Shown here: piece after piece, positions 3,860-58,870 of the stretch
Layout of the letters: every line of letters starts with the position of its first letter
How positions within the stretch are numbered: position 1 is the stretch's first letter
Assembly: GCA_021851895.1 (NCBI GenBank)
Contig: JAJZQJ010000005.1
Location: forward strand, 14,572-78,571
DNA: 64,000 nucleotides
Origin: a bacterium
Lineage (GTDB): Bacteria; Patescibacteriota; Minisyncoccia; Phycocordibacterales; UBA6899
Reading direction: 5' to 3'
Notes under the pieces: generated by a model
What the model was told of the DNA's origin: nothing
Seen by the model: only the letters and a program-made list of their open reading frames with translations
The model's database searches: none
Translations under genes and position numbers: made by a program

Positions 3860-4168
3860 ATGCGCAAGCTCTTCATCGTCTTTGGTTTCATCATGCTCAT
3901 CGGCGTCATCTTCGTCGGGCACACCTCCGAGGGTCGTCTCGCGCTCTGTCCCGCCCCTGTCCAGCAGCTGGTCAAGAGTGAAGCCAAGCGCGCAAATGCG
4001 ACCATCGCGAACATCGAGTTCGTCAAAGAAGAGATTTCCATCACCGGCCACATCGTTCGCAAGTACTGGAACGTCACCTACCGCGTCGGAAATCGCGAGG
4101 TCACAAAGCGCGTCTGCCAGCCCATCGAGGATGGCAAGCTCTGCACGGCCTCCACGTACAACATCTAG
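3860..4168 (+). CDS. Small membrane-anchored hypothetical protein (102 aa)
   Basis: N-terminal hydrophobic helix, own promoter, RBS and terminator. Confidence 0.5.
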   Translation: MRKLFIVFGFIMLIGVIFVGHTSEGRLALCPAPVQQLVKSEAKRANATIANIEFVKEEISITGHIVRKYWNVTYRVGNREVTKRVCQPIEDGKLCTASTYNI

Positions 4169-4187
4169 CGCTCGTACTGAGCGCCCC

Positions 4188-4220
4188 AACCGCACCCACA
4201 AGGTGCGGTTAAGTTTTTTA
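4188..4220 (+). terminator. Rho-independent terminator
   Basis: aaccgcacc-caca-aggtgcggtt followed by aagtttttt. Confidence 0.6.
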
Positions 4221-4261
4221 TCTTTCGCATTTTTACGAATTTTACACAACAAAAAACCGCA

Positions 4262-4520
4262 GAATTTGGGATACAGGTTGCCATGCTGGAGGCATGCGCC
4301 GTCAGCTCACATCAATATTTTCATTCGCAAAGCTCTGAAAATATTGTGTGGCTCCTGGCCGGGCTCGTCGGTCCTCGCATGAGTACTGCTGCGGGCCTGA
4401 CTCCGCCTTGCTCAGCGGAAAATGTTACACATTTTCTTTATCGCTTCGCACTCAAACAAGGCGTACTTGAAGTACGTTGAGTGAGTCGCATGTCGAAGCA
4501 TGGCAAGATGTGCCAAAATA
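4262..4520. repeat. Structured intergenic repeat family, copy 1 (long variant, ~260 nt)
   Basis: Terminal inverted arms caggttgccatgct (4275-4288) and agcatggcaagatg (4498-4511), with outer atttgg/ccaaaat. Shares the conserved 3' core cgtac-loop-gtacg + gagtcgcatg + gaagcatgg with copies at 26.0, 26.3, 58.2 and 59.0 kb. Several internal perfect hairpins. Confidence 0.5.
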
Positions 4521-49531: not shown

Positions 49532-49638
49532 TGTGGATAACTCCTGCAAACGTCTTAACTATATTTTACCGCGGAACAGAGCGCTTTTTTGGTTTTTATC
49601 CACATGTTATTCAATTACAACTGCAAAAGTTATCCACA
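49532..49638. promoter_or_regulatory. Cluster of three perfect DnaA boxes (TTATCCACA) with an adjacent AT-rich tract: candidate oriC or DnaA-regulated site
   Basis: tgtggataa at 49532-40 (reverse), ttatccaca at 49596-604 and 49630-38, AT-rich DUE-like tract at 49696-49740. Located next to gyrB. Confidence 0.5.
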
Positions 49639-54537: not shown

Positions 54538-54888
54538 TTACTCATTCGGATAAGTTCCACAAAGCGAATAAAGCATTTTGGCGAGCTCGCCAAGAAGGGA
54601 TTCTAGTTCTGAAATATTCTCAACATAGCCTAGGCGATGGGCAATCTCGAGCTGAGTTTCAACTTCAGCCACCGACCCAAGCGCAATCGAATAAAATCTC
54701 TGTCTATCTTTTTGAGTATTTCGCCTATAGCCTTCTGCAATATTTGATGGCGCTGAAATCGCAGCTCTCTGAATTTGAGAACTCAAAGCATATTGCTCAT
54801 TTTTTGGAAATGTACTTGTCAGTTTATACACAAGCACAACCATATTCATGGACTTCTGCCACACGATCAAATCTTTATAACCATTCAT
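54538..54888 (-). CDS. Four-helix-bundle protein of the 23S rRNA intervening-sequence protein family (PF05635/TIGR02436-like)
   Basis: DLIVWQKSMNMVVLVYKLTSTFPKNEQYALSSQIQRAAISAPSNIAEGYRR...FYSIALGSVAEVETQLEIAHRLGY matches the hallmark pattern of this family. Flanked by inverted heptamer arrays. Confidence 0.75.
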   Translation of the reverse strand: MNGYKDLIVWQKSMNMVVLVYKLTSTFPKNEQYALSSQIQRAAISAPSNIAEGYRRNTQKDRQRFYSIALGSVAEVETQLEIAHRLGYVENISELESLLGELAKMLYSLCGTYPNE

Positions 54889-54902: not shown

Positions 54903-54957
54903 GAGTGAAGTAGTTGTGAGAATTTCCTTCCCACTTCTCACTTCTTACTTCTCACTA
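54903..54957. repeat. Heptamer array (ACTTCTC/ACTTCTT)x3-4 plus inward GTGAGAA units, complement of family B, beginning at the pheS stop codon
   Basis: gtgaagtagttgtgagaa-tttccttccc-acttctc acttctt acttctc act. On the minus transcript this reads TAG-TGAGAAG-TAAGAAG-TGAGAAG-TGGGAAG. Confidence 0.8.
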
Positions 54958-55773
54958 TATTGTATCGAACTGATCCACGAGGCGAAGGTCGCCATTGTAA
55001 AGTGTGCGAATGTCGGGAATTCCCCACTTCAACATGACGAAACGATCGACACCGCCACCGAAAGCAAAGCCCTGGTACTTATTCGGATCAATACCGCCAG
55101 CGCGAAGCACGTCAGGATGCACCATACCCGCACCCATCACTTCGATCCACTTTTCCACCTTTCCCTTATCATCTGTCCAGCCGATGTCGATTTCAACTGA
55201 TGGCTCGGTGAATGGGAAATATGATGGGCGAAAACGCACCATCATCGGTCGTCCGAAGAGGCGTGCAAAAAAGAGTTCGAGCATACCTTTCAAGTTCGCA
55301 AGCGAAACATCTTTACCGATCATGAGACCTTCGAACTGATGGAATTGCGCCTCGTGGGTGGCATCTGTTGCTTCATAGCGAAACACCTTACCCGGTGCAA
55401 TGATGCGGATCGGCGCACCCTGCTTCTCCATATGACGTATCTGGACCGGTGATGTATGCGTACGCAAAAGAAGACGCTCGAGTCCGCGAGTATCTTTCAA
55501 CCAGAACGTATCCCACATATCACGTGCGGGGTGATCTTTCGGAATATTGAGCGCATCAAAGTTGTAGTGTTCGGTCTCGATCTCTGGGCCATCTGCGATA
55601 CTGAAGCCCATAGAGCCGAATATGCTGTTGATGTCGCGCATCATGATCGAGACAGGATGCATATGCCCGCGCTCTCCCCCCTTTCCAGGGAGCGTTGCGT
55701 CAAGGCCAATTTGCTCTCGTGAATACATAGTGAATTCATCATAGCACACGGAGAAACATGCGTAAAATGGCAT
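54955..55773 (-). CDS. pheS: Phenylalanyl-tRNA synthetase alpha subunit (short form, 272 aa)
   Basis: Class II core (FRPSYFPFTEPS, GAGMVHP) is present. Start set at MPFYACF (55773) because the upstream extension overlaps a conserved plus-strand paralog gene. The N-terminal coiled-coil extension is absent. Confidence 0.75.
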   Translation of the reverse strand: MPFYACFSVCYDEFTMYSREQIGLDATLPGKGGERGHMHPVSIMMRDINSIFGSMGFSIADGPEIETEHYNFDALNIPKDHPARDMWDTFWLKDTRGLERLLLRTHTSPVQIRHMEKQGAPIRIIAPGKVFRYEATDATHEAQFHQFEGLMIGKDVSLANLKGMLELFFARLFGRPMMVRFRPSYFPFTEPSVEIDIGWTDDKGKVEKWIEVMGAGMVHPDVLRAGGIDPNKYQGFAFGGGVDRFVMLKWGIPDIRTLYNGDLRLVDQFDTI

Positions 55774-55848
55774 TTTTTCAACGTTTCCTTGATGTGCAAG
55801 ACTTACCATGCTAGCCTGACTGTAGAGAAAGTTCACCAGAAAGGACCC

Positions 55849-56403
55849 ATGATCAGCACCCCTTCCCCGCGCCGCATTGTCAAAGTCTCCCTCGACTCGA
55901 TCGTCAGTTTCGACAACGAGGCAATACTCGCTGCGAAGAATAGCGACGAAGCGTGTCGCATCGCGGAACACCTCCTCGCTCGCCTCGAAAAGATACGAGC
56001 ACCAAGACGTTACTTCGAGCTCGCACTCAAGAACAGCCTGATGAAGAGACCGGAAATGCAGAAGCGCCACTACTTCATCATGCATGACCGAAGCGTACTC
56101 AAGGTCGCAGTCCGGTTCGGGAGGCACGCCACCACGAAAACGCGCGAGAAGCTGATCACTATCGCAGGCTACTTCGGGATGTATCGTCTTCTTAAAGAGG
56201 TCATCTCTGATTTGCGTAATACCGTGATGACGAAGCAGGAATTCCTTGCAATGACCGTCCATTTCAGCGTGTCGAGCGAAACGATGGATGAGCACGCGCT
56301 CGGAATGATTCGCGATGCTGAAATCGCACACGGTGAAGCATTCGCTAAAACGATCGAGGACGCTCTCGCTACTCGATACCAAGAATGGAACGAACTTCCA
56401 TGA
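55849..56403 (+). CDS. Hypothetical helical protein, paralog 1 of a tandem pair
   Basis: RBS agaaagga. 184 aa, alignable with the next gene (GRHATTKTREKLITIAGYFGMYRLLKEV versus GKHANMEIKERIVLVARRFRDYKLLKLTV). Confidence 0.45.
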   Translation: MISTPSPRRIVKVSLDSIVSFDNEAILAAKNSDEACRIAEHLLARLEKIRAPRRYFELALKNSLMKRPEMQKRHYFIMHDRSVLKVAVRFGRHATTKTREKLITIAGYFGMYRLLKEVISDLRNTVMTKQEFLAMTVHFSVSSETMDEHALGMIRDAEIAHGEAFAKTIEDALATRYQEWNELP

Positions 56404-56413
56404 CATGTCCTTG

Positions 56414-56436
56414 CCGCACGATCGTGCGGTTTTTTC
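56414..56436 (+). terminator. Rho-independent terminator
   Basis: ccgcacgatcgtgcgg followed by tttttt. A TTGCAA-17-TATGGT promoter follows. Confidence 0.55.
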
Positions 56437-56509
56437 TTGCAAAGTTTTATGTCTCATGTTATGGTATCCCTCCCGAGATAGTTCTTTAACCACCACAAGG
56501 AGCCCATAC

Positions 56510-57079
56510 ATGGGAAGCTCTCTTCGCGCCAATAGAAGCGGCCTTATGCCGCTACGCACACACCTCGACTTCGACATGAAGTCGATTCTCGAGATGAGTC
56601 CGAGGATCGGACTCGCCCTCGCTCAGCACACCATGCGAAAGCTCGAGATCATGGAGGCGCCCGACTGGGCCTTCGAACGATTCGCAGAGCACTGCCTCCT
56701 TGAGCTCCCGGAGTTCCAATCCGGCTGGATCATGCAGGCACAATCCAAGGACTTCTTCATGCTTCTCCTTTCGTGTGGAAAACATGCGAATATGGAGATC
56801 AAGGAGAGGATCGTCCTCGTCGCGCGCAGGTTCCGAGACTACAAGCTGCTCAAGCTGACCGTGGGAACACTGCTCGTAAGGCCGCTCTCCCCTTTCGAAT
56901 TCGAAGAGGCGGCTGAGCTTCTCCATATCACGAGCCGTGATTTCAGTGAGACCGCGAGCCTCATCACGATCGATGCGTTCAAGACACATGGCCTTGAGCT
57001 CCGATCGAAGATCAAGGAGATCCTCAAGAAAAAGGCCGACGTCGAACTCCTCGAGGAAACCGCCATTGCGGCGGTGTGA
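56510..57079 (+). CDS. Hypothetical helical protein, paralog 2
   Basis: Perfect RBS aaggag 7 nt upstream, own promoter and terminator. Confidence 0.5.
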   Translation: MGSSLRANRSGLMPLRTHLDFDMKSILEMSPRIGLALAQHTMRKLEIMEAPDWAFERFAEHCLLELPEFQSGWIMQAQSKDFFMLLLSCGKHANMEIKERIVLVARRFRDYKLLKLTVGTLLVRPLSPFEFEEAAELLHITSRDFSETASLITIDAFKTHGLELRSKIKEILKKKADVELLEETAIAAV

Positions 57080-57083
57080 AATG

Positions 57084-57108
57084 CAGCACCCTAAGGGGTG
57101 CTTTTTGT
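57084..57108 (+). terminator. Rho-independent terminator
   Basis: agcaccc-taa-ggggtgct followed by ttttg. Confidence 0.55.
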
Positions 57109-57141
57109 TATTAGGTGAGATAAGGTGTCGCATTCCGAGAT

Positions 57142-57163
57142 GAGCCACCTGCAGGACTTGAAC
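57142..57163 (-). repeat. Partial copy of the tRNA-Thr 3' end (att-like scar)
   Basis: gagccacctgcaggacttgaac versus the tRNA gagccacctgtcaggcttgaac. Confidence 0.5.
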
Positions 57164-57192
57164 AAAACTCGGCTCGCGCACCTGGGGGGGTG

Positions 57193-57209
57193 TGGAGCCA
57201 CCTGTAGGC
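57193..57209 (-). repeat. Second partial copy of the tRNA-Thr 3' end (CCA + acceptor, 17 nt)
   Basis: tggagccacctgtaggc, identical to the tRNA 3' terminus over 13 nt. Confidence 0.5.
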
Positions 57210-57467
57210 TTTCATGTCGCGATGCCGCGCACCCCAGAGGGGCCCCGCACGGCCCTGCTCCTCGATCTCCTTACAGGAGCTGTACACCTTTTGGATCTTT
57301 TGTTTCGAAGACTCACAAAAGTTCTCAAAAGGTCTTGCGCTCTCGCTCCCATAAGAATAGGGCCCATGAGCGAGAGCTCACCCACAGTGCTCGACGGAAT
57401 CCTTTTGCGGCAAAAGGATTCCTGCTCTCCTAGACGGGGAAGGTACCCCTTCCCCGACCCCCTTCCA

Positions 57468-57486
57468 TTCAAGCCTGACAGGTGGC
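57468..57486 (+). repeat. Inverted 19-nt copy of the tRNA-Thr T-arm and acceptor 3' strand
   Basis: ttcaagcctgacaggtggc is the exact reverse complement of 57529-57547. The two copies flank the tRNA terminator hairpin. Confidence 0.6.
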
Positions 57487-57493
57487 CCAAAAA

Positions 57494-57523
57494 CAAAAAC
57501 CCCCTTGCGGGGGTTTTATGTTT
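57494..57523 (-). terminator. Rho-independent terminator of tRNA-Thr
   Basis: aaaaccccc-ttgc-gggggtttt followed by atgttttt. The hairpin is symmetric. Confidence 0.6.
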
Positions 57524-57524
57524 T

Positions 57525-57600
57525 TGGAGCCACCTGTCAGGCTTGAACTGACGACCTACGGTTTACAAAACCGTTGCTCTACCAACTGAGCTAAGGTGGC
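57525..57600 (-). tRNA. tRNA-Thr (anticodon UGU), CCA encoded
   Basis: Reverse complement reads GCCACCTTAGCTCAGTTGGTAGAGCAACGGTTTTGTAAACCGTAGGTCGTCAGTTCAAGCCTGACAGGTGGCTCCA. 7-bp acceptor, D-arm GCTC/GAGC, anticodon loop TTTGTAA, T-loop TTCAAGC. Confidence 0.85.
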
Positions 57601-57649
57601 AGGTGTACGAGCAATCATTCGATTGCCCGTACAATATAACCGAAAATGA

Positions 57650-58111
57650 TTACATTGTCGATCCATCCTCGATCTTGTGATCGGGGCGTAATTCCGCAAA
57701 AGATGCCCTTTGCTTCTTCTCGACGAGTGGTTCATGGACTGCTCGACGGTGTGCAACCTTCTGACGAAATTCCTCTTTGTGCTCTACGATACGCTTGAGG
57801 AAAAACGACACTGCACCACCATGCGGAACCGCCGGATAACCGAAGAGTCGCGCATACGTCCTATCTCGCATAGCGAGCATTCGAGCGAGGACATGCGTCG
57901 TTGCGTTATGGACATAAGGCATGAAATCATGCCACAGGTCTACAAGCGCGTGGATGATATCCTGATAGGTCAAGATATAGAGATCCCACCAAGATGCAGG
58001 AATTCCACGCGAAGATGACACGCGTGACGAGCGTACTCCGAAAAGCGCCGCAACGAGAGTGCTGAGCACAAGGAGCAAGCCGACGACCCAAATTGTGATG
58101 AGAGATGTCAT
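57650..58111 (-). CDS. Membrane-anchored hypothetical protein (153 aa)
   Basis: N-terminal TM helix then a soluble domain. Preceded by structured-repeat copy 2. Confidence 0.45.
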   Translation of the reverse strand: MTSLITIWVVGLLLVLSTLVAALFGVRSSRVSSSRGIPASWWDLYILTYQDIIHALVDLWHDFMPYVHNATTHVLARMLAMRDRTYARLFGYPAVPHGGAVSFFLKRIVEHKEEFRQKVAHRRAVHEPLVEKKQRASFAELRPDHKIEDGSTM

Positions 58112-58152
58112 ATTTTTTTCCCCTCTTAGATGTGCAACACACTAAGAATGAG

Positions 58153-58262
58153 GATTTTTGGACGCAGGTTGCCATGCTAGAGACTCACGAACGCTAGCGA
58201 GATGGGCTCGGTGCCCATTGAGCGAGTCGTGAGTTGAAGCATGGTAAGATGCACCAAAAAGA
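58153..58262. repeat. Structured intergenic repeat family, copy 2
   Basis: ttttggacgc-caggttgccatgct ... agcatggtaagatg-gcaccaaaaa, with core cgaacgctagcgag-[atgggc..gcccat]-tgagcgagtcgtgag. A G.U wobble only makes sense on the plus strand. Confidence 0.5.
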
Positions 58263-58270
58263 CCATTCAG

Positions 58271-58870
58271 TTACTTGCCAACGACGAAGCGAGAAAAACG
58301 TGCGAGCTCAGTCTTTTCTCCGAACTTCTGTACTGCACCCTCGATGAGCTGCGCGATCGTAATGTCCGGATTTTTTACATAAGGCTGCTTCATAAGCACC
58401 TGCTCTGCAAAGTATGCTGAGATCTTTCCATCGAGAGCCTTCTGCTTGATCTCCTCTGGCTTCCCTGCCATCTGCTTATCTACCTCCTCCTTGAAGAATT
58501 CGATAGCCTTTGCGCGCTCTACCTCCTGGATATCTTCCTCAACGCGGTACTTCGGAGCGACTGCTGCGACATGCATAGCAATATCATATGCGAGCTGCTT
58601 GAAATCCTCGTTCTTCGCGACGAAATCCGTCTCACAATTGAGCTCTACCATCGCACCGACGGTGGAATTGCCGTGAATATATGCTGCGACGACACCTGAA
58701 CCAAGCGTACGGTCCGCCTTCTTCGTAGCGATCTCCGCAGACTTCTTGCGAAGTGCGATGCGTGCCTTCTCCATATCACCGCCCGCGTCCTCAAGTGCCT
58801 TCTTGCACTGCATGATCGCGACATTCGTCTCGTCACGCAACTGCTTCACCATGTCCATGCTGATTTCCAT
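58271..58870 (-). CDS. tsf: Elongation factor Ts
   Basis: N-terminal UBA-like MVKQLRDETNVAIMQCKKALEDAGGDMEKA plus the dimerisation core. Confidence 0.85.
   Translation of the reverse strand: MEISMDMVKQLRDETNVAIMQCKKALEDAGGDMEKARIALRKKSAEIATKKADRTLGSGVVAAYIHGNSTVGAMVELNCETDFVAKNEDFKQLAYDIAMHVAAVAPKYRVEEDIQEVERAKAIEFFKEEVDKQMAGKPEEIKQKALDGKISAYFAEQVLMKQPYVKNPDITIAQLIEGAVQKFGEKTELARFSRFVVGK

Follow-up and report, generated by a model that had tools for sequence, protein, structure and literature searches.

Integrative elements, islets and cis-mobilizable elements (CIMEs) that target tRNA genes insert between the T-loop and the 3' end of the gene, which is reportedly the classical sublocation for tyrosine integrases. 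They bring a replacement tail, leave the original tail behind as a direct repeat, accrete in tandem and have empty sites in relatives. The BOX, Correia/NEMIS, ERIC, RUP and Rickettsia RPE repeats are short, modular, protein-less, multi-copy and highly base-paired, with fixed terminal inverted repeats, short target duplications and a species- or genus-specific distribution. Among structured RNAs, GOLLD and ROOL are often found next to tRNA genes, with which they are possibly co-transcribed (PMC5737381). Here we analyse the DNA behind the tRNA-Thr(UGU) gene of a member of the Patescibacteriota, in a window of 64,000 nucleotides (nt) from contig JAJZQJ010000005.1 of assembly GCA_021851895.1; all positions are those of the window. 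The original prediction had seen in this DNA either a decayed integrative element or a structured RNA gene. Neither random decay nor a plain RNA gene accounts for the region. On balance we judge it probable, if not by much, that 57141-57524 (minus strand) is one intact copy, with the stub of an older copy, of a small protein-less RNA-structured insertion element, one of a family in Patescibacteria. We could not find a description of this family or its motif in the open-access literature, nor a match to it in Rfam.

An element with arms taken from tRNA-Thr

The tRNA-Thr(UGU) gene lies on the minus strand at 57525-57600 and encodes its CCA end (ARAGORN; Rfam RF00005, 71.1 bits). The copied part, S, is its segment from the T-loop to the 3' end (57529-57547). 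The 5' arm of the element, S' (57468-57486, minus strand, ttcaagcctgacaggtggc), is the reverse complement of S over all 19 nt, and hence pairs without a mismatch with T-loop, T-stem and acceptor 3' strand. Between the two lies an intrinsic terminator hairpin (57487-57527, core stem-loop 57496-57517), which scores on both strands and forms the loop of an imperfect palindrome, 57468-57547, with arms of 37 nt. On the far side of the element body follow two direct copies of the tRNA tail, also on the minus strand. The nearer, S*1 (57193-57216, CAUGAAAGCCU-ACAGGUGGCUCCA), has a 1-nt deletion, keeps the UCCA, and can pair with S', closing the element; the farther, S*2 (57141-57163, GUUCAAGUCCUGCAGGUGGCUCA), shares 57141-57192 with a remnant and is 82% identical to the tRNA tail over 57142-57163. 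A degenerate tail pattern matched three sites in the window at three or fewer mismatches, against 0.05 expected. The inverted copy around the terminator and the two partial direct copies, all noticed in the original prediction, are thus real, and so are the three hairpins that it had named (57337-48/57368-78, 57396-57422 and 57436-57455). Its statement that the region has about 60% GC, unlike its surroundings, did not hold up, the G+C fraction being 0.53-0.58, as against 0.55-0.59 over the 600 nt on its left side.

The region folds much better than its shuffled versions, with z = -6.8 on the plus strand and -8.0 on the minus strand. A read-through RNA that includes S' is predicted to reach -82.3 kcal/mol with the tRNA unfolded, and -59.6 kcal/mol when the acceptor stem is forced; the alternative pairing of the tRNA 3' half that had been proposed is therefore real in silico. 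The predicted pairing between S' and S*1 consists of a 7-bp acceptor-type stem and 8 further pairs, with a free UCCA end. Since S' can pair with S*1 instead of with the tRNA, the distal copy may, in this folding model, neutralise S'.

In the closest relative, L005 (EF-Ts, the tsf product, 85% identical), tRNA-Thr and its terminator are followed by the start of pheS 120 nt on. When L005 is aligned with the window, homology returns only ~60 nt before the true pheS start (55728), and the window therefore has ~1.7 kb extra (~55790-57524), made up of the structured element (57141-57524) and a pair of orphan open reading frames (ORFs) on the plus strand. On this alignment, the extra DNA is an insertion relative to the closest relative. 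S*2 has the T-loop sequence AAGTC, as in L005, and the present tRNA-Thr has AAGCC. A relative's T-loop variant at this place fits a displaced original 3' end, and S*2 is probably just that, or else the end of an older unit.

The tsf/tRNA-Thr arrangement is kept in ~40-45 related loci, all from metagenome-assembled genomes (MAGs) of Patescibacteria. About half of them have no element behind the tRNA, and in L005 and ~20 other loci the site is empty, with the next gene directly after the tRNA; the remaining loci have elements that differ in type and length, and the type at this one locus differs between species. The comparison with relatives that had been suggested thus yielded empty sites and variable elements. 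Two related element types occur behind tRNA-Thr in relatives, and one occurs behind tRNA-Ile in L042. The short type has the order S' - GAAAGnCGnAG - hairpin - GAGnCGGGGUCGAGA - hairpin - UCGUGACC - S*, with one invariant G.U pair in its hairpin; the window element is of the long type.

Other variants were seen in these relatives. In L006 (7223-7298), L007 (7243-7318) and L029 (1446-1519), the tRNA-Thr unit has been turned round as a whole with respect to tsf, and in L007 and L029 the element with it. In L027 (7185-7400), tRNA-Thr is followed by two tRNA-like pseudo-repeats of ~112 nt, each ending in a tRNA-Thr tail, one of which ARAGORN calls a 93-nt 'tRNA-Asn(att)'. A conserved long hairpin of ~110 nt with GGGGUCGCGAG lies between two genes, with no tRNA near, in L014 (~4160-4260), L026 (~4240-4340) and L030 (~4170-4270), all on the minus strand, and is possibly another relative of the short-type module.

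The body has a conserved and covarying core

The conserved core of the body (57264-57339, minus strand) is made of a long hairpin with a conserved bulged A (P2, 57287-57332), the junction UGUACAG (57280-57286; UGUACNG in the family) and a 4-bp stem with a UGUAA loop, CUCC-UGUAA-GGAG (P3, 57267-57279); it matches the R1 covariance model, and its strand is given by the covariation and the G.U counts described below. The core domain is continued on its 5' side by a conserved part (57333-57383), in which GGGUGAG and CGCAAGA enclose hairpin Pa (strands 57337-48 and 57368-78); a Pa subtype with ...GGGNCCC.UUCUUAUGGGAG... is common to the window, L177, L180 and L209. What lies around this domain is, judging from BLAST, made of variable modules: a perfect 8-bp hairpin (GGGGAAGG-GUAC-CUUCCCC, 57436-57455) and a perfect 12-bp hairpin (GGAAUCCUUUUG-CCG-CAAAAGGAUUCC, 57396-57422), neither with a homologue in other copies, and a 3' module (57216-57266), in which the small hairpin GCGCG-GCAU-CGCGAC stands just before the distal arm. 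By eye, in the short-type alignment and L217, this 3' module resembles the 'GAG..-hairpin-..CGUGACC' motif of the short type.

A scan of metagenomes with a degenerate 26-nt core pattern gave at least 120 contigs. The core is homologous to at least 124 distinct copies, and R1 has 101 matches in the metagenome loci listed, several of them tandem or multi-copy on one contig. The window copy scores 88.6 bits (E = 2e-15, the E-values of R1 being rough), the family maximum being 89.3. A weak second R1 match in the window, at 49538-49636 (minus strand, 20 bits, E = 0.32), is probably noise. The core is kept across lineages whose EF-Ts proteins are only 55-65% identical.

Because MAFFT and RNAalifold gave no usable consensus on the 95-nt upstream flanks, covariation was assessed in an alignment of 64 trimmed cores. 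Pair cells were standard in 95.8% of cases, compared to 86.3% in shuffles, and there were 68 double-change cells compared to 17, a count that none of 500 shuffles reached; controls in which the partner strand was slid paired at 34-62%. The 5' strand of P2 lies outside the search pattern, and its compensatory changes (CCUUUUG/CAAAAGG, CUUGUUG/CAACAAG, UUUUC/GAAAA) are therefore independent evidence. The same is true of the Y:R pair of P3 (C-G 39, U-A 22, U-G 3), since the pattern permitted all four combinations. In the core pairs, 11 G.U or U.G were counted against 2 A.C or C.A, and this excess together with the covariation places the core structure on the tRNA-sense strand. A GNRA-like junction (GCAA, GAAA or GUAA) precedes P2. 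The pattern itself fixes most of the 3' half of the core, so that the apparent conservation of that half is inflated.

Searches of Rfam 15 at the gathering threshold and at E <= 10, with the window, L039 and 20 other core loci, returned nothing relevant besides tRNA and one nearby LOOT; in the region considered here only the tRNA passes, which answers the Rfam scan asked for at the outset. The families covered include 6S RNA, group I and II introns, self-cleaving ribozymes, HEARO, GOLLD and ROOL. Resemblances to signal recognition particle RNA, RNase P, the hammerhead and group I introns that had been seen by eye were unsupported by Rfam. A transfer-messenger RNA or other tRNA-like RNA was also rejected: ARAGORN found no tmRNA, the distal copy is without the 5' strand of the T-stem, and the body takes the place of the T-loop. 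TIGR-Tas arrays (PMC12045711) are unrelated. The LOOT RNA (RF03000, 54.7 bits, above the gathering score) lies in L150 at 1418-1539, 130 nt downstream of a core copy; the flanks of L161 are similar to those of L150, and several modules of structured RNA may be arrayed at these loci.

Arms follow the neighbouring gene while the body is shared

Among the matches listed, a tRNA gene is found within 350 nt of 39 of the 124 copies, whereas random positions taken from these loci have one that close in 9% of cases. The orientation is that of the tRNA in 36 of the 39, and 29 anticodon types are represented, so that the copies favour the vicinity of many different tRNA genes and the strand of the tRNA. 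Layout was examined in the 32 copies that lie at most 400 nt downstream of a tRNA, with 30 shuffled controls for each. A complement of the copy's own tRNA tail between tRNA and core (S') was present in 23 of them, and a direct tail copy after the core (S*) in 18, in each case above all 30 shuffles. Most downstream copies thus have the layout of the window: gene tail, exact complement, core, and the tail again. The inverted copy is a defining feature of the family and no oddity of the window locus. The same layout stands behind the 3' end of rplK in L205 and L214, and the rplK-rplA spacer is a recurrent position, found in five loci. In L141, L163 and L191, the core lies upstream of an intact tRNA, within a disrupted partial tRNA copy.

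In 12 of the 13 cases that are informative, because a tRNA stem has a G.U pair or mismatch, S' agrees with the complement of the 3' strand. S' is therefore a true complement and not a decayed copy of the 5' half of the tRNA, and a decayed duplicate tRNA gene is ruled out by the same test. In L045 and L029, the complementary stretch extends into the trailer of the gene and not into CCA, and S' is therefore no binding site for the mature tRNA. A retroelement primer-binding site was rejected because the complement follows the trailer, and no reverse transcriptase was seen nearby. The notion that tRNA-minihelix ends act as a general processing device fits the window copy and not the minimal copies, in which the distal arm is truncated.

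The bodies of L162, at tRNA-Arg(GCG), and L167, at tRNA-Pro(UGG), are identical at 153 of 167 positions (92%) without a gap, and their arms are unrelated save for T-loop bases. The arms always match the adjacent gene, and the body can be near-identical between targets. L162 has a series of at least three units, with a tail copy and a terminator at the boundary of each; arrays are found in L162, L151, L040 and L020, and the unit measures 100-390 nt. S* is short or absent in many copies, for example in L152, so that there S' can pair only with the real tRNA.

Several copies show peculiarities absent from the window. A hairpin with the conserved loop AAACUGCUUUG often separates the acceptor part of the 5' arm from its T-stem part, for instance in L045 (7170-7192), L040 (9627-9662), L007, L154, L164 and L162. 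In L153 (8700-8960), P2 of a core copy contains a tRNA-Ile(GAT) gene on the opposite strand, flanked on either side by partial copies of itself. Identical inverted core copies stand at both contig ends in L161 (204-262 and 9553-9604) and L186 (277-354 and 4854-4931), where they enclose accessory or defence-like genes: IrrE/HTH, PF14350 Beta_protein, a trypsin-like protease and a LexA-methyltransferase fusion.

No recombinase, transposase or reverse transcriptase travels with the element

As the original prediction had stated, there is no integrase: neither this nor a transposase or reverse transcriptase was found among the called genes of the same organism ~10-15 kb to either side of the element. 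ORFs inside or overlapping the element, small overlapping ones included, had no Pfam or PHROG match. Near 120 other copies no recurrent recombinase was detected after clustering of 571 ORFs within 3 kb and a Pfam scan of 148 of them. The clusters that recur are all housekeeping families (L11 in five loci, NusG, ribosomal proteins, MiaA), and in the Pfam scan no family occurs in more than three neighbours. Nor does a retron reverse transcriptase, an IS110 DEDD recombinase or an IS605 TnpB/IscB family recur next to the copies, and no autonomous partner element was seen in 1.4 Mb of related loci. The lack of an integrase is thus the general pattern among the copies examined, and not a loss specific to the window locus. 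Among IMG/VR viral contigs, the core pattern had no match; the short-type motif had 56, which are without an inverted arm and look like chance matches in coding DNA. BLAST against a phage database returned only matches to tRNA-Thr.

Genomic context

On the minus strand, the gene order is rpsB, tsf, an ORF for a membrane protein of 153 amino acids (aa), tRNA-Thr(UGU), pheS and pheT. A sigma-70-like promoter match upstream of tRNA-Thr (TCGACA-17-TATATT, 57633-57661, minus strand), proposed from agreement with the consensus, is the sole promoter-like site in 56500-58300. The two orphan ORFs (55789-56403 and ~56513-57079, plus strand) and their terminator (57085-57102) lie outside the tail copies and are convergent with tRNA-Thr. 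The first has a single weak PHROG match, to a partition ATPase (E = 0.012); a search for homologues of the second gave none outside its own organism, and the public MAG annotation has an antisense ORF (56552-57133) in its place. The pheS ORF is over-extended (54955-56577, minus strand), its product being called at 518 aa in the public MAG annotation; the true start at 55728 gives 257 aa beginning MYSREQIGLD, as in L005, and the PheS of this lineage is therefore without the usual N-terminal domain. Between pheS and pheT, at 54538-54888 (minus strand), is a gene for a 23S rRNA intervening-sequence protein (four-helix bundle, PF05635).

MAG GCA_027330905.1 is from the same organism as the window. 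Two of its contigs end at 57488 and 57539 and overlap by 52 nt only, and Logan contigs end at 57555 and 57286. Breaks or runs of N exactly at the tRNA-tail arrays or inside the core are seen in these assemblies and also in L036 (7193-7437) and L048 (7210-7308).

A model for the element and its alternatives

The insertion element that we favour would be a unit of four parts: a replacement host-gene tail with its terminator, S', the body, and the displaced original tail S*. The body would be built on GGGUGAG-hairpin-CGCAAGA, the long hairpin with the bulged A, the UGUACNG junction and the 4-bp stem capped by UGUAA. By analogy with tRNA-targeted integrative elements, entry may occur at the T-loop-to-3' end by recombination within the shared tail, with an enzyme that would be supplied in trans. 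The palindrome of tail, terminator and complement (57468-57547) might act as a folded recombination site comparable to an integron attC or the attP of CTX phage. The order hybrid site, loop, inverted arm, body and direct repeat is what integration of such a folded single-stranded site would be expected to leave. New units would enter at the functional tRNA and push older ones outward. The core would be selected at the RNA level and made by read-through from the host gene, and the modelled S'/S* pairing would keep the tRNA folded.

A more specific and rather doubtful variant is a protein-less mobile unit that chooses its site by base pairing, in which S' would be a guide complementary to the target 3' end and the conserved three- or four-way junction a catalytic or recombinase-recruiting module of RNA or single-stranded DNA. 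Guide pairing would explain how one body type comes to lie precisely behind at least 29 tRNA species and rplK with arms that match each of them.

A number of observations weigh against an insertion element of this kind. A recombinase of fixed specificity cannot account for at least 29 targets, and the patchiness among relatives could be loss instead of gain. No pair of empty and filled sites with identical flanks was found in one population, no circular form of the element, and no two identical copies at separate sites of one genome. About two thirds of the copies have no adjacent detected tRNA; many of these are on short contigs, so that proximity to tRNAs is underestimated. BLAST finds homologues of 57264-57385 only, out of ~390 nt. 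Given that the search pattern fixes the 3' half of the core, the covariation rests on the 5' strand of P2 and one pair of P3. Finally, the terminator sits between tRNA-Thr and the element, inside which there are no promoter-like sites.

The first alternative is a vertically inherited, non-mobile RNA gene acting in trans or in cis, expressed from tRNA and ribosomal-protein operons and borrowing the tail of its neighbour for a closing helix, an explanation that we take seriously and yet consider unlikely. The borrowed tail would serve excision by tRNA-processing enzymes or protection of the 3' end, and patchiness would reflect loss. Covariation, G.U bias, the GNRA-like junction and invariant loops agree with it, as do the 36 of 39 copies on the strand of the tRNA, the recurrence in five rplK-rplA spacers, the predicted closure of S' with S*1 that leaves a 3' UCCA tail, and the frequent location of GOLLD and ROOL near tRNAs (PMC5737381). 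A direct duplication of the host tail, however, cannot be produced by point mutation, and this explanation also has to contend with the empty site in L005, the differing element types at one locus across species, the tandem arrays of different units, and bodies that are 92% identical between unrelated arms. Moreover, where S* is short or absent, as in L152, S' pairs with the real tRNA and is predicted to unfold it. The earlier suggestion of a structured RNA gene is thus upheld for 57264-57385, by covariation among 64 homologues, and leaves the target-derived arms, the empty sites and the tandem arrays unexplained. The other half of the original prediction, a decayed tRNA-targeted island or prophage whose tail copies are att scars around a functionless leftover of attP-arm DNA, is improbable and already largely refuted. 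It was right about the insertion, to which the empty site in L005 and the L005-type T-loop of S*2 both testify. Direct repeats that span the T-loop to the 3' end, DNA that is extra relative to L005, the neighbouring orphan ORFs and the breaking of assemblies at the locus could all be read in its favour. Decay is not supported: the R1 score of the window copy is near the family maximum, and sequence and pairing between the repeats are kept in more than 100 unrelated loci. Independent deletions would not join S' to the core at one constant nucleotide, the core pattern has no match among the IMG/VR viral contigs, and the orphan ORFs lie beyond the repeats.

Less probable again is an accessory signal of gene 3' ends (an extended terminator, a processing site or an insulator) that spread by local duplication and gene conversion. 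The element always follows highly expressed genes and is usually associated with intrinsic terminators, the S/S' palindrome lengthens the terminator stem to 37 bp, and in L035, which has no element, the terminator stem reaches 8 nt into the tRNA. Such a signal would be redundant with the canonical terminators that are also present, and it would not be expected upstream of tRNAs in disrupted pseudo-tRNAs, where many copies lie (L141, L163, L191), in inverted orientation around accessory-gene islands (L161, L186), or with near-identical bodies at different genes. We give hardly any credence to a chimeric or fold-back join made during assembly at the palindrome, which the contig ends of the MAG and of Logan might seem to indicate. 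The palindrome is imperfect, with identical mismatches in both overlapping contigs, contig 7 runs on across S' and the terminator and through 15 nt of the tRNA, and dozens of independent assemblies show this layout; the Logan contigs break in k-mers common to other organisms, namely those of the tRNA and of the conserved core.

Significance and comparison with known systems

Spare DNA finds little space in the tiny genomes of Patescibacteria, and nonetheless many copies of a highly conserved structured element are kept there, right beside the most essential genes. A mobile element would represent a re-aimable way of targeting conserved gene ends without an element-encoded protein, which would be of interest for the biology of mobile elements and possibly for genome engineering. 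Were the guide variant true, ultra-small bacteria would possess a new class of insertion element, programmable and guide-directed, or else a new ribozyme. Should the element be a functional RNA, it would form an abundant class that has no Rfam family and is tied to tRNA operons in a poorly understood phylum. In practical terms, the element breaks assemblies, yields pseudo-tRNA calls and over-extended ORF calls, and explains 'att-like' tRNA fragments that would otherwise be taken for dead prophages.

The window element shares with tRNA-targeted elements, islets and CIMEs the insertion site, the replacement tail, the displaced original tail, tandem accretion and the empty sites in relatives. Direct tRNA 3' repeats at both ends (S, S*1, S*2) recall an island or prophage of a tyrosine integrase, and the absence of a recombinase between the repeats recalls a CIME. 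The element differs from an island or prophage in that no integrase was found inside or beside it. It is also unlike tRNA-targeted elements and CIMEs in its unit of 100-390 nt, its exact complement of the target tail and its covarying, RNA-type core, and no autonomous parent was found in the 1.4 Mb of related loci. Furthermore, one body type occurs at rplK and at 29 or more types of tRNA, a spread that any single site-specific integrase would leave unexplained.

The imperfect palindrome of 60-100 nt at one end with a direct copy of the site at the other is shared with integron attC and with the attP(+) of CTX phage; CTX-type integration leaves the same order behind, and integron cassettes likewise form head-to-tail arrays. 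In contrast to attC, the palindrome arms are local tRNA sequence, and by eye there are no conserved R''/L''-L'/R' boxes (GTTRRRY). Among the genes called ~10-15 kb around there is no integrase to provide a link to IntI or Xer. The cargo is a structured RNA-like domain and not an ORF, and a part for single strands is here purely inferred.

With BOX, Correia/NEMIS, ERIC, RUP and RPE repeats the element shares its small, modular, protein-less, multi-copy and highly base-paired nature. Co-transcription with neighbouring genes, known for these repeats, would be a further likeness if the read-through modelled here occurs. It differs from them in its target-derived arms, its cross-lineage core and its strong bias to tRNA genes and to their strand. 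GOLLD, ROOL and LOOT are, like the core, structured RNAs known mainly from metagenomes, but there is no similarity in sequence or model, the core of ~75-120 nt is much smaller, and target-derived arms are unreported for them. The 5' ribozyme of R2 retrotransposons and the guide pairings of group I and II introns provide the last parallel, in which an element in a structural RNA gene has a fold that pairs with the flanking target. For the present family no reverse transcriptase was seen and no intron or ribozyme model matched and, unlike an intron, the element leaves its host gene intact upstream, so that no splicing is needed.

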